From: an uncultured Candidatus Saccharibacteria bacterium
Lineage (GTDB): Bacteria > Patescibacteriota > Minisyncoccia > Phycocordibacterales > UBA5272
Direction of reading: 5' to 3'
Length of the DNA: 56,848 bases
Assembly: GCA_964406165.1 (NCBI GenBank)
Contig: CAYOQQ010000004.1
Location: 1-56,848 of the forward strand
Positions 635 through 37,929 of the stretch are shown in pieces. The notes below the pieces were generated by a model. The model was given only the letters and a program-made list of their open reading frames with translations. It was not told the DNA's origin and did not search any database. Every line of letters starts with the position of its first letter. Position 1 is the first letter of the stretch. A program made the translations under genes and the position numbers.

Positions 635-2197
635 TTAGTTATCGTTTAAAGCTCCGCGAGTTAGAGTTCCAACATAACCCGTTGTTGAAATACTTTTCGT
701 AGCTTGGAAACGCTTTACTGCATCAAGAGTAAGAGAACCGAAGTAACCGGTAGCATCAGAGACTAAGTAGTTTTCTCCGATGAGATATTTTTGAAGCTCA
801 ACTACTTCATTACTTGTTTGTCCGTACCACATATCAACACTAAATGTGTAAGGTCCACCAGTTCCATTGTTAGAAGTATCTGATTGGTTTACATTAAAGG
901 CAATAGGTAGACATGTAGCGTTACTATTTTGGCATACAGTTACAACAGATGTTCCGAAACTTTTACCAGTAACAGTAAGTACTGTATTGTTAATACTTGC
1001 TACAATTGGAGACGATACTCCTGATTGTAGGTAAAAAGCTGACCCGTTACCTCCTGTCATATTTAATCGAATAGTTTCATTCACTGCGAGGAATAGTGTG
1101 TAGTTTAAGTTAGATGTTTGAGTTGCACTTGTAATTGTAACGAGAAGAGTACTGCAAGTTGCATTTGATGAGCAGATGTTAAGAGTACGAGTACCACTTG
1201 TTTGACCACTCACAGAAAGTGAATTACCTGATACCTGAGTCATGAGGGTATCACCACTTACGGTAGATACAGAATATGATCCATTACCACCAGTCATTTG
1301 TACTGTGCCAAGCTGGCTTGCTGATAGTGAAAGAGTTGTAGGACTTAACATTACTGCATTATTTGCAGAACCAGAAACTGTTACGTTCACGCTTCCACAT
1401 ATGTTATTTGAAGAACATACATTGAGTAATCGTGTACCAGTAATCGAACCACTAATAGAAATCGAGTTACCGTTAGCAAAGTACATAAGGTTATCACCAG
1501 ATACTGTTGTAACAGTATAGGGTGAGTTACCACCATTTACGGTGAACACTCCTGACTGACCAGGGGTAAGGGTGAGAGTTGAAGGAGAAATGGTGAGTCC
1601 GTTACTTGATGTCGTATTGGTTGAAATAGTTGTTGATGAACATAATCCTCCACTTGTCCCACAAATTGTTACAACTGAATTCCCACTAGAGAGCCCAGTG
1701 TAGGATATTGTGTTTCCTGAAAGAGCGACACTGATGACAGCACTGTTAGAGTTGGAAGAGATGTAGTAGATACCTGTTCCTCCTGAGATTGTCATAGAGC
1801 CACTCTGACCAACGGTTATGTAAGGATTGGTTTGACTAAATGTGATTTGGCCTTGTGATCCAGCATTTTGGTAAGGCCAGGTGAGACTATTAGAAGTGTA
1901 ACCATTAATAATAGTATACACAGGAGTCGTGGAGTTTATTCCAACCCCGGTCGTACTAATTGTTCCAGAAAAGCTACCTGTGTTATTTGTCGTACCAAGA
2001 ACTTGCGAATGAGTTGTTCCGTCAGAATTTGATTTAAAGTAGAGTGCTATTTGGGAATTGCCATCTGCTCCTGTGATTGAGACAACAACATTGTTCCCAT
2101 CTCCAGTACTTACTGCAGATAACTGAGGTGAAGCAGCAGATGTGACAGCAAAAGGTACCATACATGCAATCATAAAACTAAGAATATATTTTTTCAT
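635..2197 (-). CDS. secreted surface protein with about 5 Ig-like S/T/G-rich repeats and a C-terminal peptidoglycan-binding domain
   Basis: It has an N-terminal signal peptide (MKKYILSFMIACMVPFAVTSA). Repeated modules of about 85 aa read (L/I)SP(T/S)TL(S/T)L...GGNG(S)Y(S/T)V.TVSGD...C. The C-terminus (VVELQKYL...GYFGSLTLDAVKRFQ) is PG_binding_1-like. Confidence 0.7.
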   Translation of the reverse strand: MKKYILSFMIACMVPFAVTSAASPQLSAVSTGDGNNVVVSITGADGNSQIALYFKSNSDGTTHSQVLGTTNNTGSFSGTISTTGVGINSTTPVYTIINGYTSNSLTWPYQNAGSQGQITFSQTNPYITVGQSGSMTISGGTGIYYISSNSNSAVISVALSGNTISYTGLSSGNSVVTICGTSGGLCSSTTISTNTTSSNGLTISPSTLTLTPGQSGVFTVNGGNSPYTVTTVSGDNLMYFANGNSISISGSITGTRLLNVCSSNNICGSVNVTVSGSANNAVMLSPTTLSLSASQLGTVQMTGGNGSYSVSTVSGDTLMTQVSGNSLSVSGQTSGTRTLNICSSNATCSTLLVTITSATQTSNLNYTLFLAVNETIRLNMTGGNGSAFYLQSGVSSPIVASINNTVLTVTGKSFGTSVVTVCQNSNATCLPIAFNVNQSDTSNNGTGGPYTFSVDMWYGQTSNEVVELQKYLIGENYLVSDATGYFGSLTLDAVKRFQATKSISTTGYVGTLTRGALNDN

Positions 2198-2293
2198 TTT
2201 GTTGTGTGGATTAAAGTTGGTTAATTAGAAAGTTGTTAAAGATAGATGTTTTTTTGCATAATATGCTTATAACTTAGGTGTCCTGTACTACGT

Positions 2294-2875
2294 ATGACGC
2301 ATGAGACGTTGGAATATTACACCTCAAACAGAAGTTTGATTCAATATGGAATGCTATACTTTCTGTATATGAACGATATTGAACATAAAGATGACCAAAA
2401 TTTTTGGAATATTATTTATTCGGCATTCTTTGCAGGTATTTGTTTTCTGTTGTGTGTAATTCTTATACAAGTACGTGGGTCGCTTCCAACATCGATTTCT
2501 TTCTTTGACATGGCTCTTATTATGCTCGCCACTTTTCGTCTCACTCGACTTTTTGTATATGATAAAATTACTCGTTTTTTAAGAGATTCATTTTTTAATG
2601 CGCACGAGTCTTATACAGAAGAAGGTGTAACGTATTTTGTAAAAAAAGAAAGAACAAATGGTCCACTACGGACAGCCTACGAGCTACTCACGTGCCCATG
2701 GTGCTTTAGTGTGTGGGCAGCAACTGTCGTTGTCTTTTTCTACTTCCTGACTCCACTTGCATGGCTTCCGATTTTTATCCTCGCCGTATCAGGTGTTGCA
2801 TCCTTCTTTCAGCTTGTTGCTAACATGGTTGGTTGGACAGCCGAGAATGGAAAGTTACGAGCTACAAAGGGTTAA
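2294..2875 (+). CDS. integral membrane protein, DUF1360-like
   Basis: It has four predicted TM helices. The RLTRLFVYDKITRFLRD and CPWCFSVW motifs resemble DUF1360. Confidence 0.45.
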   Translation: MTHETLEYYTSNRSLIQYGMLYFLYMNDIEHKDDQNFWNIIYSAFFAGICFLLCVILIQVRGSLPTSISFFDMALIMLATFRLTRLFVYDKITRFLRDSFFNAHESYTEEGVTYFVKKERTNGPLRTAYELLTCPWCFSVWAATVVVFFYFLTPLAWLPIFILAVSGVASFFQLVANMVGWTAENGKLRATKG

Positions 2876-2997: not shown

Positions 2998-3939
2998 ATG
3001 AAAAAAATTATGCGCATTCTCTCAGTAGTTATTGGTATTAGCTTAGTTGGATATTTGTTTTCATATATAGGAAGCCACAACATGGGGGTACTTAACCCTA
3101 AGGGGCTCATAGCAGAAGCTGAAAAAAATCTCCTTATTACAGCGGTATCACTCATGATGATTGTTATTATTCCTGTGTTTGTTATGCTTTTTTCTTTCGC
3201 ATGGAGATATAGAGCAAGTAACACAAAGGCAAAGTATGCGCCAGATTGGCACAATAATCTTCCTCTTGAGATAGTTTGGTGGCTTGTCCCAGTTACTATT
3301 ATCGCCATTTTAGGTACAATAACTTGGAAGACGACTCATGACCTGGATCCTTTTAAACCACTTGACCTTGACGTTAAGCCTGTGACTGTTCAAGTTGTTG
3401 CACTTGATTGGAAGTGGCTCTTTATTTATCCAGACGAACATATTGCCACAGTTAATTATCTTGTTATTCCAAAAGACACACCTATTAACTTTATTATTAC
3501 TGCTGATGCACCAATGAATGCATTTTGGATTCCCCAGCTTGGGACTCAGATTTATGCTATGCCAGGGATGTCTGCAAAGTTACATTTGGTTGCAAATGAA
3601 GAAGGAATATATAAAGGGGTGTCATCTAATTTCAGTGGAGACGGTTTCTCAGGAATGAAATTCGATACTAAGGTTATTTCTGGTGAGGAATATGCTGACT
3701 GGGTTAATACCGCTAGAACTATTTCAAGCCCGCTTACTAAAGAAACGTATACTGCTCTTGCTAAACAATCTAAAAATGTACCTGTACACCTTTTCTCTTC
3801 TGTTGAAGATGGGTTGTATGATTCTATTATTATGAAATTTATGGCACCAGGAGAAATGGGTACCAATAAGAGTTCTTCCGGCGCCTCGCAAGGCTCACCG
3901 ATGAATATGGAGGGGATGGGTACAATGATGTCACATTAA
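2998..3939 (+). CDS. cyoA: cytochrome o/bo3-type ubiquinol oxidase subunit II
   Basis: Start chosen at the internal ATG (MKKIMRIL..., lipoprotein/TM-like). The cupredoxin-like domain has [14 protein letters not shown] and no CuA Cys ligands, as in quinol oxidases. It is first in the cyoABCDE order. Confidence 0.88.
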
Positions 3940-3959
3940 TAATCAATATACATACAATT

Positions 3960-5906
3960 ATGCTAGGAAGATTCACAACACAAGCGCTCCCTCATGATCC
4001 TATTGTTATCGCTGCAACTGTCTTTATGTCAGTTATTGTAATAGCTGTAGTCTGGGCACTATTTCACTTTAAAAAGTGGAAATGGCTATGGACTGAATGG
4101 ATAACTTCTGTAGACCACAAAAAGATTGGCATCATGTATCTCATTCTTGCTTTTGTGATGCTGCTCAGAGGTTTTATTGATGCGGCAATGATGCGTACAC
4201 AGCAAGCTATTTCTATTGGGGATAATATGGGGTTTTTGCCGCCTGATCACTATGACCAAATATTTACAGCACATGGGGTGATTATGATTTTCTTTGTGGC
4301 AATGCCGTTTATGTTTGGTCTTATTAACTTAGCAGTGCCACTTCAGATAGGTGCTCGAGATGTGGCGTTCCCTTTTCTTAATTCAATGAGTTTTTGGTTT
4401 ACAGTGATGGGGGCATTACTCGTAAATGCATCACTGGTGCTTGGGGACTTCGCAGCAGTAGGATGGCTTGCGTACCCGCCGCTTTCTGAGCTTCAGTTTA
4501 GTCCTGGTGTCGGGATGGATTATTATATATGGTCAATACAAATCGCTGGTGTTGGGACATTACTTTCTGCAATTAACTTTTTTGTAACAATTATTATGAT
4601 GCGTTGTAAAGGGATGACGCTTATGCGGATGCCAGTCTTTACATGGACTAGTCTCTGTTCGATGATTCTTGTTATTATTGTGTTTCCAATTCTTACTGCA
4701 ACACTTGCAATGTTAGGGGCCGATAGACTTTTAGGGATGCATTTCTTTACATCATCATTTGGAGGTAATCCGATGATGTATGTAAATCTCATCTGGGCAT
4801 GGGGGCATCCAGAGGTGTATATTCTTATACTGCCTGCATTTGGAATCTTTTCTGAAGTAGTTGCAGCATTTTCAAAGAAGCGATTATTTGGGTATACGTC
4901 TATGATTTATGCGACAGTAGCTATAACGATCTTTTCATTTTTGGTGTGGCTTCACCATTTCTTTACTATGGGGGCAGGGGCTAATGTGAATGCGTTCTTC
5001 GGTATTATGACAATGATTATTGCAATTCCAACCGGAGTGAAAATTTTCAACTGGCTCTTTACGATGTTTAGAGGCAGAATTACCTTCGCCTCCCCAATGC
5101 TTTGGATGATGGGTTTCATCTTCACCTTTACATTAGGTGGCATGACAGGAGTCATGCTTTCAGTACCTGGAATTGATTTTCAAGTACACAATAGTCTCTT
5201 TTTGGTTGCACACTTCCATAATACGATTATTGGTGGAGTTGTGTTTGGGTATTTTGCAGGACTTGTGTATTGGTTCCCGAAGTTCTTTGGGTTTAGACTG
5301 AATGAAAAATTTGGTAAGCTTGCATTTTGGCACTGGATTATTGGGTTCTTCGTGACATTTACTCCACTTTATATCTTAGGATTTATGGGTATGACTCGAA
5401 GGTTACAACATATTAGTGATCCGGAATGGAGGCCATTACTTATTATTGCTGCAATTGGAACTGCGATTATCTTTGTAGGTGTTGTGATGCAGGCAATTCA
5501 ACTTATTGTGAGTATTAAGGATAGGAAGAAACTTAAAGATACAACAGGTGACCCATGGGATGGGCGAACACTCGAATGGTCAACAACATCACCACCACCA
5601 TTTTATAACTTTGCGATTTTACCTGAAGTGAACGGTCGTCATGCATTCTGGGATATGAAATACGGTGATGCAGAAAAAATAAGTAAGGTGTATAAAGATA
5701 TCCATATGCCAAAGAATACTCCTCTTGGTTTTTATATAGCCATTGCTAGTTTCTTCTTTGGTTTCGGTCTTGTGTGGCATATATTCTGGTTAAGTATCAT
5801 TGCCATAATTAGTATTGTTGCTCTTGTAGTTAGTCGTTCTTTTGATACAGAAACGTCATATATCATCACCAAGGAAGAGTTACTTCGCTTAGAAAAGAAG
5901 CATTAA
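3960..5906 (+). CDS. cyoB: cytochrome o ubiquinol oxidase subunit I (heme-copper oxidase)
   Basis: 648 aa with motifs [30 protein letters not shown] and [11 protein letters not shown]. Confidence 0.95.
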
Positions 5907-29989: not shown

Positions 29990-31396
29990 ATGTCCATTTC
30001 CATAGATTATCTTTTTAATAGAATATATGACGTGCTGCTTTGGTTTAAGTACACATGGTTGTTTACTATACTTCGTACTGAGCCAGAAAAGTATGTGCAA
30101 GATGTGGAATACAGAGATTGGGACGGTTTACGTGACAGGGGCTGGTTTGATGAATACTTCGCAGCTAAAAGCGCAGCAGTTCCTGAAGCAGATACTCACA
30201 TTTCTTTATGGCAACGAATGCTCGAATCTTTTGGGATGAAGCTCCCTGATAGTGATCTTGATGGTATACCTGATGTTTCTGATACGAGTAAGTATGATAG
30301 TCATAATCTTACAAAAGCTGAATTAAAAGAAAGATTTGAGCCAGACTATACACTGAGCGACCATATTCGTGATGCATTTGGAATTGGGCCGCGAGACTTT
30401 GATAAAGATGGAGTTCCTGATAGTTATGAACTCAAGCATGGAATGAATCCTAAGAACCCAGACACTGACAGAGATAGTATTTTAGATGGAGAAGAGCTTG
30501 CTCAGGGTGCTGACCCACTTAATAGTGATACTGACGGTGATATGGTTTTAGATGGACGAGATGAAGCACCTCTTGATAAAAGTGTTTCATCAATTGGTAA
30601 AGACACAGATGGCGACGGTCTCAGTGATAGAGTCGAAGGGTATCTAGGTAGCGATATTTCAAAAAAAGATACTGATGGAGATAACATTACTGATAACATG
30701 GATACCTATCCGCTTGATCCAGAAAATCTGGGACAAGTTGCTGCTGTTGATTTTGCTAAAGCTGGTGAAGGGCTACATTTTTCTATTCAAAATCCAGTCC
30801 TTGGATTGGTTACGGATATGATATCAGTATTAGTAATCATCATCATGGCAATTTTTGTGTATGTGCTTATGAGATGGGTCTTTACGTTTCTTGCAGGTTT
30901 CGCACATTATGAGCATCATTTCCATCATACGGCTCACCATACACACAAGGTTCATGTTATTCGTGACTCTATGCATGAAGAAGAGACTCATGATACAGAA
31001 GATTCACACGAGATGCCAGCGGGTATCCCAGGACTTCCAATAGGAACTGATGAACATATCCAGACACCATCATTTAAGGAAATGAAAGATCACCCTAAGT
31101 TTGCTGTTATTCAAGGATATCTCAGTAGTCAGAGTGAAGCACTCTGGAGAATAGGAATTATGGAGGCAGATAATGTACTTCTTGAAGTGTTAACAGAGAA
31201 GGGGTATCAAGGTGATGGTGTGGGAGAAAAATTAAAAGGAGCAAGCTTTAAGACAATTGATTTAGCATGGGATGCACATAAGGTTCGAAATAGAATTGCT
31301 CACGAAGGATCTGATTTTGAGTTAACTGAACGAGAGGCGAAGCGAGCTTTCATGCTTTACGAGTCTGTGTTACGTGACTTAAAAGCAATAAGATAG
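29990..31396 (+). CDS. membrane protein with thrombospondin-type-3-like Ca-binding repeats, TM, His-rich linker and a C-terminal helical domain carrying an Rx4H motif
   Basis: At least six D.D.DG..D repeats (DSDLDGIPD, DFDKDGVPD, DTDGDMVLD, DTDGDGLSD, DTDGDNITD). TM VLVIIIMAIFVYVLM, then HYEHHFHHTAHHTHKVH, then WDAHKVRNRIAHEG. Confidence 0.6.
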   Translation: MSISIDYLFNRIYDVLLWFKYTWLFTILRTEPEKYVQDVEYRDWDGLRDRGWFDEYFAAKSAAVPEADTHISLWQRMLESFGMKLPDSDLDGIPDVSDTSKYDSHNLTKAELKERFEPDYTLSDHIRDAFGIGPRDFDKDGVPDSYELKHGMNPKNPDTDRDSILDGEELAQGADPLNSDTDGDMVLDGRDEAPLDKSVSSIGKDTDGDGLSDRVEGYLGSDISKKDTDGDNITDNMDTYPLDPENLGQVAAVDFAKAGEGLHFSIQNPVLGLVTDMISVLVIIIMAIFVYVLMRWVFTFLAGFAHYEHHFHHTAHHTHKVHVIRDSMHEEETHDTEDSHEMPAGIPGLPIGTDEHIQTPSFKEMKDHPKFAVIQGYLSSQSEALWRIGIMEADNVLLEVLTEKGYQGDGVGEKLKGASFKTIDLAWDAHKVRNRIAHEGSDFELTEREAKRAFMLYESVLRDLKAIR

Positions 31397-31474: not shown

Positions 31475-32446
31475 ATGAATAAATCAATTCGAGTCGCAGT
31501 AGTTGTTACTGCTACTGTTCTTGTGGCTTCGCTGTGCGCTTGGTCATTTTCCGCAAAGCAGTCTCAAGAATCTGCGCAAGTTGCCACTGCTCCCGCTATT
31601 TTAGGGGTTGCTACGACAACTGATGTTGCAAATGCAACTACTTGTCCGTACATGATGGTGAGCTGGAATCTTGGTAACTTCGGCAAGTCAAAAACTGATG
31701 AAGTTATCAAGAAGATTACTCAAGTTCTAAAAAGTAAAAATGCAGATATTCTTGCAATTCAAGAAGTGACTGCAGGTAAGGGTTTCGGTGCTAAGAAAGT
31801 ATCAGACCTGGCGATGGAACTCACTAACAGTACAGGTGAAGGATGGGATTATGTTGTGAGCGATCCAACTCTACCTACTTCTCCCGGTGTTGAGAGATAT
31901 GCCTATGTGTTTAAGAAAGCAAAGGTCTCAGTGAATCATGACAAGGTGCAGTTGCTCAGTGAGCTTCAAGATCAGATTGATCGTGAACCTTATTACGGGA
32001 CTTTTAGTTTCAAAAATAAGTCTTCACAATCAAAACTCGATGTGATGATGTTCAGTATTCATACTGTTCCAACGGCGAAAAATCCCAAGCTTGAAGTTGA
32101 GACACTTCCGTCATCTGCTACTCTTCAAAAGATTCAGAAGGAAAATCTTCCTGCAATTTTTTCTGGAGACTTCAACCTTGGGCCTGATGCAACCGACCCA
32201 ACATTTGTAACCTTAGGGTTTAAGGGGACGATTAAGCAGAAGACTTCCCTTAAGCAGAAAGTGACAGCGACGGGAGAGTATTTGTTTCATCAGTACGATA
32301 ATGTGTATGTGAAAAACATTCGCGTCTGTGGTTCTGGTGTAATAGATTTTGTTCAGATGTTGTACTTGCCTGTAACTGACGAAAGTCTGGTGCAAGCTCG
32401 TACGGTGAGTGATCACTTGCCAGTTTACGTCAATTTTGGACCTTGA
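31475..32446 (+). CDS. secreted endonuclease/exonuclease/phosphatase (EEP, DNase I-like) family nuclease
   Basis: Signal/anchor sequence plus SWNLGNFG, ADILAIQEV, GDFN and the C-terminal SDHLPVYVNF. Confidence 0.8.
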   Translation: MNKSIRVAVVVTATVLVASLCAWSFSAKQSQESAQVATAPAILGVATTTDVANATTCPYMMVSWNLGNFGKSKTDEVIKKITQVLKSKNADILAIQEVTAGKGFGAKKVSDLAMELTNSTGEGWDYVVSDPTLPTSPGVERYAYVFKKAKVSVNHDKVQLLSELQDQIDREPYYGTFSFKNKSSQSKLDVMMFSIHTVPTAKNPKLEVETLPSSATLQKIQKENLPAIFSGDFNLGPDATDPTFVTLGFKGTIKQKTSLKQKVTATGEYLFHQYDNVYVKNIRVCGSGVIDFVQMLYLPVTDESLVQARTVSDHLPVYVNFGP

Positions 32447-32474
32447 TAGTTTTAGAACCTAATTGGTTCATCAA

Positions 32475-32504
32475 CCCCGATACGAGAGTGTCGGGGTTTT
32501 GTTT
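32475..32504 (+). terminator. intrinsic terminator of the nuclease gene
   Basis: ccccga-N10-tcgggg followed by ttttgttt. Confidence 0.7.
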
Positions 32505-32534
32505 ATAATTTATGTCTATTGATTAAACTAAAGG

Positions 32535-32540
32535 TATAAT
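32535..32540 (+). promoter_or_regulatory. candidate -10 box (GGTATAAT) upstream of module A
   Basis: aaggtataat lies 20 nt upstream of the first conserved block. No good -35. Confidence 0.3.
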
Positions 32541-32560
32541 TAGTTCTTAGATTATTAAAG

Positions 32561-32770
32561 CTAGGAATCGGTCACGGAGACTGTTTCTCGCTTCACTCGA
32601 AACAGTCTCGCTAGGTTCCAAGAACCGAACTTGCTAGTTCGCCCGTATTCGATTTCCTCGCGGTGCGATTTACAAATCGCCTGGCACACAACAAGCAGTT
32701 GTTGTGCTTCCGTTACAGACAAGTAAATAAAAAGAGACGCTGGGGTACAGCGTCTCTTTTTATTTACTTG
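32561..32770 (+). repeat. tRNA-linked structured module Met-A (candidate ncRNA or att scar), including its own terminator hairpin 32733-32762
   Basis: It shares blocks AGGAATCGGTCACG, CCCGTATTCGATTTCCT and GTGCTTCCGTTACAGACAA with module B. Hairpins at 32577-87/32599-609, 32665-80 and 32684-707. Confidence 0.6.
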
Positions 32771-32939
32771 TTGCGGGGACAGGAATCGGTCACGAAATCA
32801 CTTCCTCGCAAGCTCGTCAGAGATGATTTCTCGACCCCGTATTCGATTCCTGGCGCACATGACGCAGGTCATGTGCTTCCATTACAGACAATTAAAAAGA
32901 AAGTAGCACTGATTAACAGTGCTACTTTCTTTTTAATTG
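32771..32939 (+). repeat. tRNA-linked structured module Met-B, including terminator hairpin 32894-32934
   Basis: It starts with a copy of the antisense tRNA-Met 3' end. The exact match is 21 nt (32768-32788 = 32937-32957, so it begins 3 nt before the module boundary). GGAATCG 32782-88 pairs with CGATTCC 32844-50. Hairpin 32855-76 has a GCAG loop. Confidence 0.6.
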
Positions 32940-33010
32940 TTGCGGGGACAGGAATCGAACCTGTGTCCCGAGGTTATGAGCCTCGTGAGTTACCTCTACT
33001 CTACCCCGCT
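32940..33010 (-). tRNA. tRNA-Met(CAU), initiator-type; CCA not encoded
   Basis: Hand-folded 71-nt cloverleaf: AGCGGGG-TA-GAGT-AGAGGTA-ACTC-A-CGAGG-CTCATAA-CCTCG-GGAC-ACAGG-TTCGATT-CCTGT-CCCCGCA-A. Initiator hallmarks are the 1:72 mismatch (A/A) and A11:U24. Confidence 0.85.
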
Positions 33011-33135
33011 ATATTTGTAAACGTCAAAGTATAATACCATATTTAATTATATTCTACAATGGCAATCGTTTGATATTTATGAATCAGGGTTGAAAAAGTG
33101 TCAAATTTGTAGTAGTATTTGTTGTACTCAGTGTA

Positions 33136-33163
33136 AGAAAAATAAAATATGTCAGTGTAGCTC
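33136..33163 (+). repeat. orphan copy of the tRNA(CAU) upstream motif plus the first 13 nt of the tRNA
   Basis: The 28-nt agaaaaataaaatatgtcagtgtagctc is identical to 33277-33304. Confidence 0.8.
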
Positions 33164-33291
33164 GAGAAACTTGGTTTCGAAGATGTCCTGATTTAACAAA
33201 ATCAAGTCTTGGACTAAAGCCAGCAGGCAAAGGACACAGTTGGCCAAGGTGATACTATATCTAGTGCTCTGATGGTAGAAAAATAAAATAT

Positions 33292-33368
33292 GTCAGTGTA
33301 GCTCAGTTGGTTAGAGCGAAGGACTCATAAGCCTTAGGTCGGTGGTTCGATCCCACCCACTGACACCA
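33292..33368 (+). tRNA. elongator-type tRNA(CAU): tRNA-Met or tRNA-Ile2 (lysidine); CCA encoded
   Basis: 77-nt cloverleaf: GTCAGTG-TA-GCTC-AGTTGGTTA-GAGC-G-AAGGA-CTCATAA-GCCTT-AGGTC-GGTGG-TTCGATC-CCACC-CACTGAC-A-CCA. Confidence 0.85.
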
Positions 33369-33768: not shown

Positions 33769-35007
33769 TCACTCTTCGTTCCTTGACCATTTCTTAGCAA
33801 CATCATCCATCTCTTTTTTAATAGCCTCTACGAAACCATTTTCGATATGTGCTTGCTTAAGAATTGTTCGTGCGTATCTGTGGTAGAAAAAAAGCGGACA
33901 GAGTGAAGATTTAACAAGTGATACTGTTATAGGTACGTTCACTGCCTTGTCGGCTTTATTTTTGTCAGTAAATGACATTGAGAGAGTAATATTTTCAATG
34001 GTGTAGTGTTTGAAGTTTCCTTTCATCTGGAGTTCTTCAAGACAGGTAAAGAGAGGGTGGAGGCCATTTTCTTGTTGAGAGCTTGGAAGCGTGAGGCGAA
34101 TTTTGTTTTTTTGTTTTTCACTACCAAAAGAAAAGGTGATAGCTTTTATCTTCCACATTAAAAGCGGAGTACCGCGATTTGTTTTTGCAAAATCAAAACT
34201 CTCATCTTTAAATGGTGCTAAGTCAAATGATTCAATTTTCTCGGTATATCCATCGTTACAAATAATTCTTAGGAATGTGTCGAGGAAAATAAGTTTCTCA
34301 TATTTGCTCCCAGTGTAAGAAATAAGAATCTCTTTATCTTGTGGAAGGTATACAATTCTTACTTTTTCAACTTTTTTCTTAGTTGCTGTTTTGTCGAGAT
34401 TTCCAGTTTCACTGTCTCGTTCAGTGGTTAGTTCGGGTGCACCTTCAAATGTTGCATCAACATACAAGACACCATTTAGAGTTTTCGATTCTACAAGACA
34501 CTCAGTTACACGATCTTCTTTGTTTGCTAAGCGAGTGAATTCTTTTGTGAGCTCGGTTATTTTAAGATTAGCTTCTGTAAGGTCTACTTCTTTTGCTTCG
34601 TAGAGCATGTAGTTAGGCTTTACATAAAAGGTGTGAAGGAATTGTACTTCATCATAGAGGTCTTTGTGGAAGAGGTAATAGTATAGTACTCTGTCATGAT
34701 CAGATGAACATTCAATATGAGTCTCGTGTTTAGCTACTTTTCGCTCAATAAAAAGTGAAGAGAATAGGTCAGAGGCATGAGGTGTGGAGATACTAGAAAG
34801 AGGGGCGAGCTCACGCTGAATATCAATTTTCTGTTCTGGCGGAAGTGAATTGTAGAAATCGTTAAGAATAGCAATAACATTCTTTCTGGTGGTCTGCTCA
34901 GTAATTTCAAAAATCGCCATTATGTCATGTCGCTTATAGAGTTCAACCAAAAGGTCGGGTGCGTAGATTTTTTTGAAGTAATTTTTGGTAGAAAATGCTT
35001 GAGCCAT
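33769..35007 (-). CDS. hypothetical 412-aa protein (orphan, no recognised domain)
   Basis: Long uninterrupted ORF between two tRNA genes, cytoplasmic and Lys/Glu-rich. Its stop codon lies inside the 25-bp repeat 33759-33783. Confidence 0.6.
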   Translation of the reverse strand: MAQAFSTKNYFKKIYAPDLLVELYKRHDIMAIFEITEQTTRKNVIAILNDFYNSLPPEQKIDIQRELAPLSSISTPHASDLFSSLFIERKVAKHETHIECSSDHDRVLYYYLFHKDLYDEVQFLHTFYVKPNYMLYEAKEVDLTEANLKITELTKEFTRLANKEDRVTECLVESKTLNGVLYVDATFEGAPELTTERDSETGNLDKTATKKKVEKVRIVYLPQDKEILISYTGSKYEKLIFLDTFLRIICNDGYTEKIESFDLAPFKDESFDFAKTNRGTPLLMWKIKAITFSFGSEKQKNKIRLTLPSSQQENGLHPLFTCLEELQMKGNFKHYTIENITLSMSFTDKNKADKAVNVPITVSLVKSSLCPLFFYHRYARTILKQAHIENGFVEAIKKEMDDVAKKWSRNEE

Positions 35008-35212: not shown

Positions 35213-35286
35213 GCAGTGGTAGCTCAGCTGGTTAGAGCACCGCCCTGTCACGGCGGGGGTCGTGGGTTCAAATCCCATTCACTGCG
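35213..35286 (+). tRNA. tRNA-Asp(GUC); CCA not encoded
   Basis: 74-nt cloverleaf: GCAGTGG-TA-GCTC-AGCTGGTTA-GAGC-A-CCGCC-CTGTCAC-GGCGG-GGGTC-GTGGG-TTCAAAT-CCCAT-TCACTGC-G. Confidence 0.9.
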
Positions 35287-35340
35287 CACATACTAAAAAG
35301 CACGACTTAAGTCGTGCTTTTTAGTATGTGCGCAGTGAAT
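35277..35340. repeat. perfect 30-bp-stem palindrome (loop ttaa) containing the tRNA-Asp 3' end and a bidirectional terminator core
   Basis: attcactgcgcacatactaaaaagcacgac (35277-35306) is the exact reverse complement of 35311-35340. Confidence 0.9.
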
Positions 35341-35533
35341 AGTACAAGGCTAAACGCCTTGTACGTGGGATTTGAATGAAGAAGCGGTCTACAAAAGTAA
35401 TACAACAAAAGTTGGTTTCATGACTTTTGTTGTATTACTTTTGTCGCTTTTTCCTTAGGCGAAAGTTAAGAGTATTTTATGAATCATGTAGTGATGAAAT
35501 AAAATACCTTAACAATCGCCAAATCCCATTCAC
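35341..35533 (-). repeat. tRNA-linked structured module Asp-1
   Basis: Read on the minus strand it starts with GTGAATGGGATTTG (antisense of tRNA-Asp 35269-35282) and ends with CATTCAAATCCCAC plus the hairpin 35342-64. It also has a 22-bp internal hairpin (35390-35443). Confidence 0.55.
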
Positions 35534-35655
35534 CTGCGTGGGACTTCGGGATTTGAATATGCGATTAGTAAATCGCGCCGAGAGGCGATATCGCGAATCT
35601 GCTTCGAGGAGCAGAGCGACGAGGCAGATTTGTGACCAAATCCCATTCCCGGTAC
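35534..35655 (-). repeat. tRNA-linked structured module Asp-2
   Basis: The minus strand reads GAATGGGATTTG-GTCAC-hairpin ... GCGATTTACTAATCGC-ATATTCAAATCCC. The GTCAC block and the GCGATTTACNAATCGC hairpin are shared with the Met modules. Confidence 0.55.
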
Positions 35656-35699: not shown

Positions 35700-36071
35700 A
35701 TGAAAAAACTGTACATAAGTAGTATATTGTTTTTACTTCTTATTGGAGCAACTTTTTATTTTGTTGCCAATAAAGAAGCGAAAAGTGTGGATGGAAAATG
35801 TAAAGCAGGGTATAGTTCACAGTATGTATTTACCGGTGGTGATAAAGGATATTACACTCCGTGTATTAAAAATGCTGTAGACGCAGGGGTTGTGTGTGAG
35901 ATAAATAGTCAGTGTTCAACTGGGTATTGTATCCCATTAGAAACATTTGTTAGAAATTGTGCTGAGCAAAAGTCATCTTGTGAGAATATAACTGGAACTT
36001 GTTCAGAAAATAAATCAGTTCAAGTCTCAATACCAAAGAAAAATAGTATTTATATAGTACGAAACAAATAA
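35700..36071 (+). CDS. small secreted cysteine-rich protein
   Basis: Signal/anchor MKKLYISSILFLLLIGATFYF with 10 Cys in the mature part. The next gene starts 13 nt downstream. Confidence 0.55.
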   Translation: MKKLYISSILFLLLIGATFYFVANKEAKSVDGKCKAGYSSQYVFTGGDKGYYTPCIKNAVDAGVVCEINSQCSTGYCIPLETFVRNCAEQKSSCENITGTCSENKSVQVSIPKKNSIYIVRNK

Positions 36072-36084
36072 AAATCATACTTAC

Positions 36085-37929
36085 ATGCCCTACCCAATCC
36101 GGCACATTACCCAAAAAGATATTATCTCAGATCCTGTTGGGTCGTATCGAGAATTTCGTAACCGTATTTTATTTGAAGGACAACTTGCTCCGTTTCCAGA
36201 GTTTGCGCCAGTCGTTGATTTTCTCATTAAAGAACTCTCAGATTCATTTATTCAGACGATGATGCTTGAACATCCTGCTCTTCGGCTTGAGTACACTGAA
36301 GTAAGAACACTGTTGTTCCACATTAACTTAACGTTTTCGCTTGATGATCAGGAAACATATCCATATGATGCGCCATTTTCTGCTCCATATCCTTACAGAC
36401 CGACTATTGATGCCATAGAAGCTGCTATACGATTTTTCGATAAAGTTAACAGGCTAGACCCAGAGAATCGTGCTGTTAAGTTATATCACTTTGATCGCTA
36501 CTGCTACCATAGACACGCTCTTGTAACAAGTGAGGAAGTCATTATACTTCCAACTTTAGAAGACTTAGGTATTGTTGATTTTATCCGTACTCGATCTGTG
36601 CCAATAGAGTTCGTCGGAGTTATTTCTAAAACATTACGAGTGGATGGGCACGCTCAGTCACCTCTTGATTTTTGGTATCACGATTTAAACCATGCCAGAA
36701 GGTTATTTGCATATATTAAAAAGAGGCTTAAAGAAAGAGGGATTACATCACACGAGGCAGCACTTAGATATTATTCTGAAGTGAATGAGTTTATGGAAAG
36801 TGTTATTGTTCCACAGTTTATTTCTTTAAATGGTTTTTCTGAAGAAGAAATTGGGCTAAGGAAACTTTGCACACTTATTATTTTCGAAATTGTTCATGAG
36901 ACAGCTCTTACACTTGAGCGAGATGCGCTTATTGGGGATGTGTTACGAGGGAATGGTCCACAGCCATTTGAGTATCAATTGCACGATGAAGGGTTAACTG
37001 AAGAAAACTTAAGAACCCCAACTGGAAATATTCAAAGTGGTGCTCAACACGGGCGTCTCGATGCTAGTAATGCTACAAAAGTGAGATACTTTTTAGATGC
37101 TGCATCTATTGGGCTTCTTGCTAATGTGTACAGTAAGCTTAATCATTATTACTATGATAATGCGACAACTGTTAATGAGGATATCGTCCCAACAGCTTGG
37201 AGAACCCCTGAGAAAATTGTTGAAGCTGCGAAGTATATTTTAACTGTACTAAAGTGTGAGCACACCCCAAGTGATGAAGAATTATATAGGCTTGTTACAG
37301 ATAGAGAGGGTACAAAAGAAAGAATACTAAAACCTGCTATTACAGAAAATGAGAGTACTCAAAAAGTGCAGGATGCAACGGACCCGCTAACTGCAGAAGA
37401 AGTTATTGAACTCATACGATCACGCGGTAAAAAAGTATACACGTTATTCGGCTACTCAGCATTAGGATATGAGTCACATGACCGTATGCTAGATGTAGTT
37501 AAAGAAAAAATAAGTTCGCTATCTAGAGATGAATGGGTAATAGCAATTGGTGCAACAGAAGAAGGGGTGGGGTCTTGCTATAGTGTAGCTAAAGAACTAG
37601 GTTTCGAAACTATCGGTATCGTCTCTACACAGGCATTGTCATATAGTGGTAAGTTCTCTGACTATGTTGATATGATTTATATCGTCAATGACGAGTTGTG
37701 GGGTGGGTATATTCCAGGTACGACTAAACTCGCTGAAACAACAAGAACATTCCTTTCGTGTAGTGATTTTATCCTAGCACTTGGTGGAGGGGATAATACT
37801 ACAGTAACTCTAACTGCAGCGAAGTCTATTCAGCTACCATTTGAGTACATACCATTTGAGATGAACCATGAGAATGCAAAAAAGAAGCAGATAGAAGATG
37901 TTCGAGGGTCTGCAGTAATTTTTGCGTAA
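36085..37929 (+). CDS. hypothetical 614-aa protein with a C-terminal SLOG/LOG-like (TIGR00725-like) Rossmann domain
   Basis: The C-terminal 180 aa run VYTLFGYS...IGATEEGVGS...GIVS...SCSDFILALGGGDNTTVTL. This matches the GG.G...Rn..lv..sD..ia.gGG.GT architecture of the LOG/SLOG superfamily. The N-terminal 430 aa are unrecognised (contains FWYHDLNHARR). Confidence 0.5.
   Translation: MPYPIRHITQKDIISDPVGSYREFRNRILFEGQLAPFPEFAPVVDFLIKELSDSFIQTMMLEHPALRLEYTEVRTLLFHINLTFSLDDQETYPYDAPFSAPYPYRPTIDAIEAAIRFFDKVNRLDPENRAVKLYHFDRYCYHRHALVTSEEVIILPTLEDLGIVDFIRTRSVPIEFVGVISKTLRVDGHAQSPLDFWYHDLNHARRLFAYIKKRLKERGITSHEAALRYYSEVNEFMESVIVPQFISLNGFSEEEIGLRKLCTLIIFEIVHETALTLERDALIGDVLRGNGPQPFEYQLHDEGLTEENLRTPTGNIQSGAQHGRLDASNATKVRYFLDAASIGLLANVYSKLNHYYYDNATTVNEDIVPTAWRTPEKIVEAAKYILTVLKCEHTPSDEELYRLVTDREGTKERILKPAITENESTQKVQDATDPLTAEEVIELIRSRGKKVYTLFGYSALGYESHDRMLDVVKEKISSLSRDEWVIAIGATEEGVGSCYSVAKELGFETIGIVSTQALSYSGKFSDYVDMIYIVNDELWGGYIPGTTKLAETTRTFLSCSDFILALGGGDNTTVTLTAAKSIQLPFEYIPFEMNHENAKKKQIEDVRGSAVIFA

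Follow-up and report, generated by a model that had tools for sequence, protein, structure and literature searches.

A family of folded repeats carrying sense and antisense copies of the tRNA 3' end downstream of tRNA genes in Patescibacteria

We identified a large, previously undescribed family of folded repeats that trail more than 30 kinds of tRNA gene in one clade of ultra-small (Patescibacteria) bacteria. The family has at least 355 copies, 221 in 120 genome loci and 134 in 77 metagenome contigs, and is restricted to this clade. About 80% of copies lie 30–60 nt, or one unit further, downstream of a co-oriented tRNA gene, and each copy carries a sense and an antisense copy of the 3' end of its own tRNA, much like the poorly understood tRNA-linked repeats (TLRs) of E. 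coli. The family was recognized from two tandem modules, A and B, next to a tRNA-Met gene in a 56,848-nt stretch of Candidatus Saccharibacteria DNA (contig CAYOQQ010000004.1; hereafter, the window). A third and a fourth copy follow the tRNA-Asp gene of the window.

The modules had been described in an earlier note, and what it observed was confirmed in every sequence-level detail: the two tandem modules, the 21-nt repeat of the tRNA end, the shared blocks, the compensatory hairpins and both terminators are present. Its interpretation was only partly supported. The note was right that the stems differ while pairing is kept (so that selection or templating acts on a single-stranded structure), that the element is tRNA-linked and that the identity to the tRNA starts in the T-loop. 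However, it placed the structure on the plus strand, convergent with the tRNA, while the folded strand is the tRNA-sense (window minus) strand and the modules are co-directional trailers. What the note took for an antisense copy of the tRNA end opening each module is, on the correct strand, a sense copy that closes each module; the true antisense segment is the block that it called the sense T-loop half. The units start at the terminator that follows the tRNA, not at a plus-strand promoter near 32545, where a consensus scan found none. The note could not see that the modules belong to a family serving over 30 tRNA species.

Modules downstream of the tRNA-Met and tRNA-Asp genes

The tRNA-Met(CAU) gene is located at 32939–33010 on the minus strand (ARAGORN; Rfam tRNA model, 62.2 bits) and is probably the initiator, as it has a 1:72 mismatch, with the first acceptor pair flagged as non-canonical. 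Its 3' portion from T54 onward is the template for segments t', a' and X of both modules. In tRNA-sense order a unit contains a terminator hairpin; segments a' and t', together an antisense copy of tRNA positions 54–73 split at 64/65 by hairpin P2; a conserved purine-rich bulge; a conserved hairpin P3; and X, a sense copy of the tRNA 3' end starting at T-loop position C56, often followed by a second terminator.

Module B starts 50 nt after tRNA-Met on the same strand; all of the following parts of modules B and A are on the minus strand. Terminator hairpin H1 (32888–32940), between the tRNA and module B, has 24-bp perfect arms and a U-tract and was called as a minus-strand terminator (32936->32892). 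The a' segment with the conserved GGAAG (32877–32892, minus sense AUUGUCUGUAAUGGAA) is a decayed antisense of the tRNA acceptor 3' strand and trailer, in which only UUGU:ACAA still pairs. It is followed by P2 (32855–32876, GCACAUGAC-CUGC-GUCAUGUGC) and by t' (32842–32852, CAGGAAUCGAA), the antisense of tRNA positions 54–64 (T-loop plus T-stem 3' strand), which pairs with X. The conserved bulge (UACGGGG) and P3 (GUCGAG...CGUGAC) occupy 32789–32841; the apex of P3 has a tandem-GA motif (CUGACGAG/GCGAGGAAG) whose K-turn-like reading is an inference. The minimum free energy fold of the module has −45.7 kcal/mol (z = −4.0). X (32768–32788, CGAUUCCUGUCCCCGCAACAA) is a sense copy of the tRNA from C56 through the discriminator plus 3 trailer nt. 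It is identical over 21 of 21 nt to 32937–32957 and sits inside a 109-nt direct repeat, 32680–32788 against 32849–32957, with 76% identity. On the plus strand the closing helix is seen as TTCGATTCCTG at 32842–32852, complementary to CAGGAATCGAA at 32949–32959 and to the copy at 32781–32788.

The second terminator hairpin (32719–32771), between modules B and A, also has 24-bp perfect arms and was called on the minus strand (32767->32723). Module A (32561–32723) is the older, distal copy. It contains a' (32708–32723), P2 (32685–32707), an inserted hairpin (32665–32680), t' (32648–32658, AGGAAAUCGAA, with one extra A), the bulge (32642–32647) and P3 (32570–32641, with stem 32577–87/32599–609 and an inserted double mini-hairpin at 32610–32641). 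Its X is reduced to CGAUUCCU at 32563–32570 (AGGAATCG as read on the plus strand), with no terminator after it. Module A was detected by the family profile (nhmmer) at 51.4 bits, while the covariance model (CM) gave 34 bits for its 5' part. The blocks shared by the modules are AGGAATCGGTCACG, CCCGTATTCGATT (two exact copies) and GTGCTTCCRTTACAGACAA. Hairpin GAGACTGTTTC/GAAACAGTCTC stands against GGTCACGAAATCA/TGATTTCTCGACC, and the two GCAG-loop hairpins differ in stem sequence.

The tRNA-Asp(GUC) gene (35213–35287, plus strand) carries two further members on its own strand. The first unit (35277–35376) is of a 'perfect palindrome' type: a 64-nt perfect palindrome at 35277–35340, with its left arm starting at tRNA position 65, is followed by P2 (35343–35363) and by t' (35366–35376), fully complementary to tRNA positions 54–64 (35267–35277). 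Its P3 core is replaced by an unrelated 145-nt insert with a 22-bp hairpin (35391–35444), and an X copy is located at 35519–35533. In the second unit (35534–35655; nhmmer 61.2 bits, CM 38.9 bits) P2 is truncated and fused to the preceding X; t' (35548–35557), inserted mini-hairpins (35560–35590), P3 (35592–35637) and X (35637–35650, CAAAUCCCAUUCCC) follow.

The family, its fold and its strand

Recurrence of the same architecture in 221 copies in genome loci and 134 in metagenome contigs shows that it is not due to chance. Among the 221 copies in genome loci, 176 have a same-strand tRNA within 300 nt upstream, against 14 with an opposite-strand tRNA in the same position. Metagenome contigs, used as a replicate with the same search pattern and nhmmer profile, gave 102 of 124. 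Distances peak at 40–60 nt or one unit further, and relatives have one to three units per locus. In module-bearing loci 147 of 241 tRNAs carry a copy, a figure biased by how the loci were chosen. Segment t' is complementary to its own tRNA at 10.25 of 11 positions, and X is identical over 18 or more of 18 nt in about a third of copies, the rest being decayed. Where X and the tRNA differ, t' follows the tRNA and never X alone.

Helices P2, t':X and P3 are 97.8, 84.7 and 89.7% paired, respectively, and 28 of their 35 pairs show double changes (in P2, 9 of 9 pairs are changed on both sides). The covariation score was 0.432 against 0.195 for shuffles (0 of 500) and ∼0.13 for slid partners. In contrast, an acceptor-like a':X helix is only 42.5% paired, which is background. 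P3 cores are 94–100% identical between different genomes and different tRNAs while P2 stems vary; the same core type occurs at different tRNAs, and different types occur at the same tRNA. Two G·U pairs at the base of P3 remain in 80–101 of 108 copies.

Several measures place the structure on the tRNA-sense strand. P3 has 277 G·U cells on this strand against 24 A·C cells. The CM scores module B at 114.9 bits on the minus strand and 14.7 bits on the plus strand, terminators were called on the minus strand only, and the fold has z = −4.0 on minus against −2.9 on plus.

Presence of the modules is patchy among close relatives, and many copies are decayed, as expected for selfish or neutral DNA. Locus L004 of a relative (89% LigA identity) lacks the Met-i modules but has one at the other tRNA-Met(CAU), where the window has none. 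The nuclease neighbour, used as a synteny handle, found no relatives; ligA worked instead. Rfam searches at the gathering threshold and at E <= 10 gave only tRNAs, the miRNA-like sub-threshold hits being the terminator hairpins. In a phage database only the tRNA matched, and no copies were found in viral contigs. A search with the 19-mer GTGCTTCCRTTACAGACAA gave two chance hits only, because this a' block is tRNA-specific. Upstream of solo copies Rfam found nothing; these copies are preceded by decayed X-like or module-like remnants.

Interpretation and competing explanations

With moderate confidence at most, we read modules A and B as tandem copies of a lineage-specific family of TLR-type repeats, the Patescibacteria counterpart of the E. 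coli TLRs, that produce a trailer RNA. The analysis itself demonstrates that the family exists, fixed downstream of and co-oriented with tRNA genes, that t' and X are matched to whichever tRNA lies upstream, that P2, t':X and P3 are conserved helices and that the strand is the tRNA-sense one. Transcription, processing and any function are, on present evidence, inferred from sequence alone. In the inferred mechanism, RNA polymerase reading through the tRNA terminator would transcribe the module, and t' would pair with X to rebuild the T-stem of the tRNA as the base of a long P3 hairpin. The RNA would end in a tRNA-like 3' segment that the tRNA 3'-end machinery, or the next terminator, can define, as was proposed for the E. 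coli TLR sRNAs RrA/B/F. P2 and P3 would form the functional or protein-binding body, and in read-through transcripts t'/a' could alternatively clamp the genuine tRNA 3' third. Arrays such as B then A would grow and shrink by recombination between the tRNA end and its X copies, with distal copies such as A then decaying. Some observations sit less well with this view. Without a conserved a':X helix the 3' end is not a full minihelix mimic; t' following the tRNA fits templating from, or pairing with, the tRNA at least as well as an internal t':X helix; in the perfect palindrome type read-through RNA would unfold the tRNA acceptor stem; and quasipalindrome template switching could imitate compensatory change.

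A serious rival, possible but less likely, is a non-autonomous mobile or integrative DNA element that works as folded single-stranded DNA. Here t'/a', just 5' of the foot of P3, would act as a base-pairing guide for the target, the sense strand of a tRNA gene 3' end, while X at the 3' foot of P3 would be the matching right-end cleavage or crossover site. Equivalently, the t':X hairpin would rebuild the duplex of tRNA-gene positions 56–64. A trans-acting HUH or tyrosine enzyme would insert units after the tRNA end or after a resident X, giving tandem arrays and occasional cargo. The family is indeed multi-copy, patchy and decaying, with tandem accretion and interchangeable core types; identity starts exactly at C56, t' follows the tRNA, there are perfect 30–35 bp palindromes, and strand-specific G·T pairs with an extrahelical bulge suit protein-recognized DNA hairpins. 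Copies with a perfect X lie at the far end of 0.7–3 kb accessory cargo downstream of the matching tRNA, as in genome loci L017 (methyltransferase), L112 (with a G2P-like HUH Rep fragment, PF05144, E = 1.5e-7, in unrelated-looking cargo), L025 and L019; locus L166 has two identical modules 3.3 kb apart. However, no transposase, integrase, TnpB or RT was found in 52 ORFs next to solo copies, a search for 5' and 3' halves separated by an ORF found no split autonomous copy, and pairs of empty and filled sites were too diverged to fix the element ends. Modules occur on both replication strands in the window. Retargeting to over 30 tRNA species needs co-ordinated change of t', a' and X, for which no mechanism is shown; tandem sheared-GA (K-turn-like) motifs and near-invariant G·U pairs are more typical of RNA; and cores that are 100% identical across divergent genomes need either constant horizontal transfer or host-level constraint.

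A more far-reaching possibility, which we consider unlikely although the evidence leaves room for it, is a base-pairing-programmed system aimed at tRNA 3' ends. It could be a miniature single-strand-DNA element whose 11–20 nt internal guide (t'/a') chooses the tRNA gene end it inserts behind and is re-templated for each tRNA. It could also be a trailer RNA using the same guide to clamp the T-arm and acceptor 3' strand of its own tRNA precursor, with X as a built-in decoy, amounting to a per-tRNA quality-control or maturation switch. Either form would also explain the long-unexplained E. coli TLRs.

Neutral origin by palindrome-driven replication errors (quasipalindrome template switching and fold-back copying) at tRNA terminators, in a lineage with reduced repair, is very unlikely. 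In this scenario hairpins are perfected mutationally, and the tRNA arm, being under selection, dictates its partner. Perfect 30–64 nt palindromes running into the tRNA, the exact tiling of the reverse complement of tRNA 54–73 plus trailer by a' and t', nested mini-hairpin insertions and t' following the tRNA all fit. Still, such errors cannot create the same P2 and P3 sequences independently at hundreds of sites, so that a common origin and spread are needed; the two G·U pairs at the base of P3 stay uncorrected, and unpaired motifs (AAUAGGG, the CUGC loop) and whole cores are conserved across genomes.

Comparably unlikely is one of the two readings of the earlier note, in which the modules are stacked attL/attR scars of integrase-borne islands once located in the tRNA 3' end, with the conserved blocks as arm regions. 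It explains the direct repeats beginning in the T-loop and fits the few copies that flank small accessory-gene islets. The note had suggested looking in relatives for an integrase-bearing element; none was found at any of the sites examined, and 62 neighbouring ORFs (10 + 52, a sample short of whole genomes) gave no integrase or recombinase family. Moreover, most units are only ∼170 nt from repeat to repeat, and att scars do not predict a tRNA-matched antisense copy, covarying hairpins or the same core, 94–100% identical across genomes, behind over 30 different tRNAs. The other reading, a plus-strand structured or antisense ncRNA starting near 32545, is a remote possibility: the plus strand also folds (−41.6 kcal/mol, z = −2.9) and the terminators are bidirectional in shape, but family orientation, G·U/A·C asymmetry and CM scores oppose it, and no plus-strand promoter or terminator was called there.

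Further identities were rejected. A tRNA-like minihelix or tRNA pseudogene is ruled out by the background level of a':X pairing and by GGGGUCGCG being constant whatever the tRNA. A hammerhead (CUGACGAG) was rejected by eye, as the motif is not conserved across copies; no Rfam ribozyme family reached the gathering score, and none appeared at E <= 10 in 32400–33100. In a box C/D-type guide the tRNA-complementary segment would adjoin the D-like box, which it does not, and against an LTR-type primer-binding site the antisense copy extends into the trailer of the gene, not into CCA.

Comparison with known systems

tRNA-like RNAs (the tmRNA tRNA-like domain and bacterial Y RNA YrlA) share a T-stem-like helix followed by an acceptor 3' strand and discriminator at the 3' end, but the modules have no conserved acceptor helix and no T-loop, and ARAGORN and Rfam give no hit. 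Integrase att repeats at tRNA 3' ends (genomic islands, CIMEs) share the direct repeat starting in the T-loop, tandem accretion and occasional cargo; the modules differ in the absence of an integrase among the ORFs sampled, in their ∼170-nt size and in having an antisense copy of the tRNA end and conserved covarying hairpins.

IS200/IS605-family ends and their miniature derivatives (PATEs) have strand-specific imperfect hairpins and, in IS608, a short guide 5' of the hairpin foot that base-pairs with the flanking target and with the element's own end; their order is cleavage site, guide, hairpin. In CTX-phage attP(+) a folded single strand recreates the duplex target, and integron attC sites, which likewise present a recombination site from a folded single strand, have conserved structure with variable stems and tandem arrays. 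The module has the order target, guide (t'), hairpin (P3), matching end (X). The guide, however, would be 11–20 nt rather than 4 nt, the target is a different tRNA for each copy, the RNA-type motifs are unexplained, no Y1/HUH or tyrosine recombinase was found in the 52 ORFs sampled, and no ends could be defined from the diverged empty and filled sites.

The closest known system is the TLRs of E. coli (rttR/rtT downstream of tyrT-tyrV; rrA/rrB/rrF downstream of rRNA operons), known since 1978 and still without an assigned function apart from three rRNA-operon members (PMC8144298). The modules have no sequence or structure homology to E. coli TLRs or to Rfam RtT, even at E <= 10; they serve over 30 tRNA species with hundreds of copies, have a terminator or palindrome between the tRNA and each unit, an antisense copy spanning 54–73 and split by conserved P2, and a conserved P3 core of discrete interchangeable types, and some copies border accessory-gene cargo. 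What is shared is only the logic, so that the modules are of the same kind as the TLRs but not of the same family. TLRs lie immediately downstream of, and co-oriented with, a stable-RNA gene, in 1–5 tandem units per locus, each ending in 18–19 nt identical to the 3' end of the upstream tRNA or rRNA, and rrA/B/F lie between two terminators, are made by read-through and are processed (PMC8144298). The modules agree in location, in orientation, in the number of tandem units (two after each tRNA in the window) and in the terminal identity (21 of 21 nt in module B, while module A keeps only 8 nt). We found that in tyrV the identity also starts inside the T-loop and that the tyrV/rttR unit also contains GGGGAAGGAT, antisense to its terminal AUCCUUCCCC, the two pairing as the closing helix. 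The window shows the same design, a sense and an antisense copy of the stable RNA 3' end closing a structured body, in a distant, genome-reduced phylum, expanded to most tRNA species with clear covariation and a conserved core. The data set is large enough to ask whether the design is for 3'-end processing mimicry, tRNA clamping or guide-directed mobility. It also warns annotators that much 'intergenic' DNA next to Patescibacteria tRNA genes is a structured repeat that breaks assemblies (the matching public contig ends inside this tRNA-Met).

Tandem modules and their position behind tRNA genes

The region next to the tRNA-Met(CAU) gene (32939-33010, minus strand) holds what the earlier note described, and the observation stands as a description of the sequence. 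The first acceptor pair of this tRNA is non-canonical, which fits an initiator. On the plus strand, 32768-32788 repeats 32937-32957 exactly; this 21-nt repeat is part of a 109-nt direct repeat with 76% identity. The shared blocks, the two GCAG-loop hairpins with different stems, the inner hairpins and two perfect 24-bp terminator hairpins were all found. Surrounding genes are bacterial: NAD-dependent ligase (ligA), an amidase, an Exo_endo_phos nuclease, cytochrome oxidase subunit I, type IV pilus ATPases and rpoB. The ligA relatives place the window in Patescibacteria, in Paceibacterota/‘Nomurabacteria’-type MAGs. The gene for the cytochrome/quinol oxidase subunit I (3960-5906; COX1, E = 4e-148) is located in what the ligA relatives indicate to be a genome of a group usually described as fermentative. 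Four ORFs of 123-614 aa around the tRNA cluster (29990-31396, 33769-35007 on the minus strand, 35700-36071 and 36085-37929) have no Pfam family. The only public contig encoding the window's nuclease (Logan contig SRR12487045_33964) is identical to the window; it ends inside the tRNA-Met, just after the second copy of the 21-nt repeat, so the repeats probably break short-read assemblies.

The modules belong to a family. Loci syntenic with ligA in relatives carry homologous modules next to the same tRNA-Met. An iterated nhmmer profile found 37 copies in the window plus 53 ligA loci, including a third window copy downstream of tRNA-Asp; the copies lie behind two kinds of tRNA-Met(CAU), tRNA-Asp and tRNA-Leu. 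We then searched species-representative genomes with the core pattern GAATAGGGGTCGCG-N(22-52)-GTGACC. Nearly all hits are in the same clade, with several contigs per genome.

Over all loci there are at least 221 copies. Taking the nearest tRNA within 300 nt, it is upstream on the same strand in 176 copies, upstream on the opposite strand in 14, downstream on the same strand in 13 and downstream on the opposite strand in 5. Distances cluster at 40-60 nt, with a hairpin in between, or one unit further. A replicate in metagenome contigs, found with the same search pattern and nhmmer profile, produced 134 copies; of the 124 not cut by a contig end, 102 lie behind a co-oriented tRNA. More than 30 tRNA species are involved. 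No copies were found in viral contigs.

Anatomy, structure and strand of the units

Read in the direction of the tRNA, every unit has the same order: a hairpin after the tRNA; a'; RGAAG; P2, a 9-11 bp stem with loop CUGC; t'; the bulge AAUAGGG; P3, with base GUCGCG/UGUGAC; and X. The X segment is a sense copy of the upstream tRNA from T-loop C56 onward, while t' is the reverse complement of tRNA positions 54-64. Both change with the tRNA (e.g. CAGGAAUCGAA/CGAUUCCUG for Met, UGGGAUUUGAA/CAAAUCCCA for Asp and GAGACUCGAA/CGAGUCUC for Leu-CAA). On average, t' matches its own tRNA at 10.25 of 11 positions. Together, a' and t' tile the reverse complement of tRNA 54-73 plus trailer without gap or overlap, with P2 inserted at 64/65.

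A second, unrelated core type occupies the P3 position within the same a'-P2-t'...X frame (GGCCGCAGUGAUG...stem...CCACGAGGGGCGG, with a box-C-like GUGAUG opposite CGAG). It was seen at locus L017 (18710-18851), in the closest relative, L004 (18111-18220), and at locus L158 (around 2200-2400, minus strand); so the frame, not the core, is the constant feature. A small double-hairpin cassette of the type GAAUUAGUAAAUUC-G-CUUCUUGGAAG is inserted at different places inside different modules (window 32610-32641 and 35560-35590; locus L019 15413-15577 and 16094-16225), as if it were a nested mobile mini-hairpin.

Pairing was assessed on an alignment of 108 sequences. In P2, 97.8% of cells are paired and 9 of 9 pairs show changes on both sides; in t':X the figures are 84.7% and 6 of 9, and in P3 89.7% and 13 of 17. 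The acceptor-like a':X helix is paired in 42.5% of cells, which is background, and is not conserved; because of this, the unit is not a tRNA-like minihelix. The covariation score is 0.432, while shuffles give 0.195 (0 of 500 reach the observed value) and slid partners give about 0.13.

Several lines of evidence identify the folded strand. P3 has 277 G·U cells on the tRNA-sense strand against 24 A·C, and two G·U pairs at its base are present in 101 and 80 of 108 copies. A covariance model scores module B, the copy nearest to tRNA-Met, at 114.9 bits on the minus strand and 14.7 bits on the plus strand. The terminator scan calls both hairpins on the minus strand only and finds no plus-strand promoter near 32545, where the earlier note had proposed to look for a transcript start. 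The folded strand is therefore the tRNA-sense strand, which reverses the orientation given in the note (modules on the plus strand, convergent with the tRNA).

Configurations, turnover and cargo

Units occur in two configurations. In the first, a' and the sequence before it form a perfect 30-35 bp palindrome with tRNA positions 65-73, the trailer and the terminator core (about -50 kcal/mol), and X has decayed beyond the T-stem. The tRNA-Asp of the window shows this type, with a 64-nt perfect palindrome at 35277-35340 and t' at 35366-35376. The second configuration is that of module B: the terminator is separate, a' has decayed, X is identical to the tRNA for 18-23 nt and a second terminator follows. 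Where X differs from the tRNA at positions 56-64 (52 cells), t' pairs with the tRNA in 50 and never with X alone.

The P3 cores fall into discrete types that are 94-100% identical between different genomes and different tRNAs, while the P2 stems and the tRNA-specific parts differ. Presence of the modules is patchy. The closest relative, at 89% LigA identity, lacks the modules behind the 72-nt tRNA-Met but has one behind the other tRNA-Met(CAU); the window shows the reverse.

About a fifth of copies are not next to a tRNA. Several of them sit at the far end of 0.7-3 kb of accessory genes downstream of the matching tRNA, with a perfect X; others are preceded by decayed X-like remnants. At locus L112, 2.9 kb of cargo between tRNA-Leu-CAA and a module with a perfect Leu X contains a 222-aa ORF (751-1419, minus strand) with a Phage_CRI/G2P-type rolling-circle Rep N-terminal domain (PF05144, E = 1.5e-7). 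At locus L166, two nearly identical Leu-UAA-type modules (193-305 and 3558-3670, minus strand) lie 3.3 kb apart on one strand and flank three ORFs: an IucA/IucC-like protein, a hydrolase-like protein and an unknown. No integrase, transposase, TnpB or RT was found in 52 neighbouring ORFs.

Repeats were also seen on the 5' side of tRNA genes. A perfect 28-nt direct repeat is present in the window at 33136-33163 and 33277-33304, where the promoter-proximal AGAAAAATAAAATAT plus the first 13 nt of the plus-strand tRNA-Met is duplicated 141 nt upstream; the 113-nt spacer holds small hairpins with UUGG loops. Weak homologues lie upstream of other tRNAs (e.g. locus L026 18831-18910, before tRNA-Asp). 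This may be a 5'-side counterpart of the 3' modules. Tandem repeats on the 5' side of tRNA-Met were found at L017 (16215-16470) and L026 (16120-16450); each holds the first 25-30 nt of the tRNA (acceptor 5' strand and D-arm) plus the upstream promoter-like region, followed by a palindromic AACCUCGGAGGUU hairpin.

Interpretation and comparison with tRNA-linked repeats

The interpretation offered in the earlier note is supported only in part. The existence of the family, its location behind co-oriented tRNA genes, the matching of t' and X to the upstream tRNA, the P2, t':X and P3 helices and the identity of the folded strand are shown by the sequence analysis; transcription, processing and any function of the modules are inferred. 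With moderate confidence, we favor the reading of the modules as a trailer RNA of the tRNA-linked repeat (TLR) type. In this view, read-through of the tRNA terminator would yield an RNA whose t':X helix rebuilds the T-stem of the tRNA and presents a tRNA-like 3' segment, with P2 and P3 forming the conserved body; arrays would expand by recombination at the tRNA-end repeats, and distal copies such as module A (the second copy after tRNA-Met) would decay.

The main rival, possible but less likely, is a single-strand-folding mobile DNA element whose t'/a' act as a target guide. The mobility-like features and the cargo fit this reading better, although no enzyme for it was found in the 52 neighbouring ORFs and it lacks defined ends. 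The two readings are not mutually exclusive. Conventional att scars and a plus-strand antisense RNA, both of which the note had considered, and neutral palindrome mutagenesis alone are each unlikely.

The closest known kind is the E. coli tRNA-linked repeat family, which has 22 members at ten loci (1-5 per locus) whose last 18-19 bp are identical to the 3' end of the upstream tRNA or rRNA. The rRNA-operon members lie between two terminators, are made by read-through and are processed; the rest have no known function (PMC8144298). We examined the tyrV/rttR locus directly. Each 178-nt unit ends in AAUCCUUCCCCCACCACCA, so the identity starts in the T-loop; each unit also contains GGGGAAGGAU, the antisense of AUCCUUCCCC, and the MFE fold pairs the two as a closing helix. 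So the logic is the same, although there is no sequence or Rfam similarity. The new features of the family described here are the spread to most tRNA species, the split antisense copy reaching through the acceptor strand, the conserved P2 and P3, the interchangeable core types and the occasional cargo.
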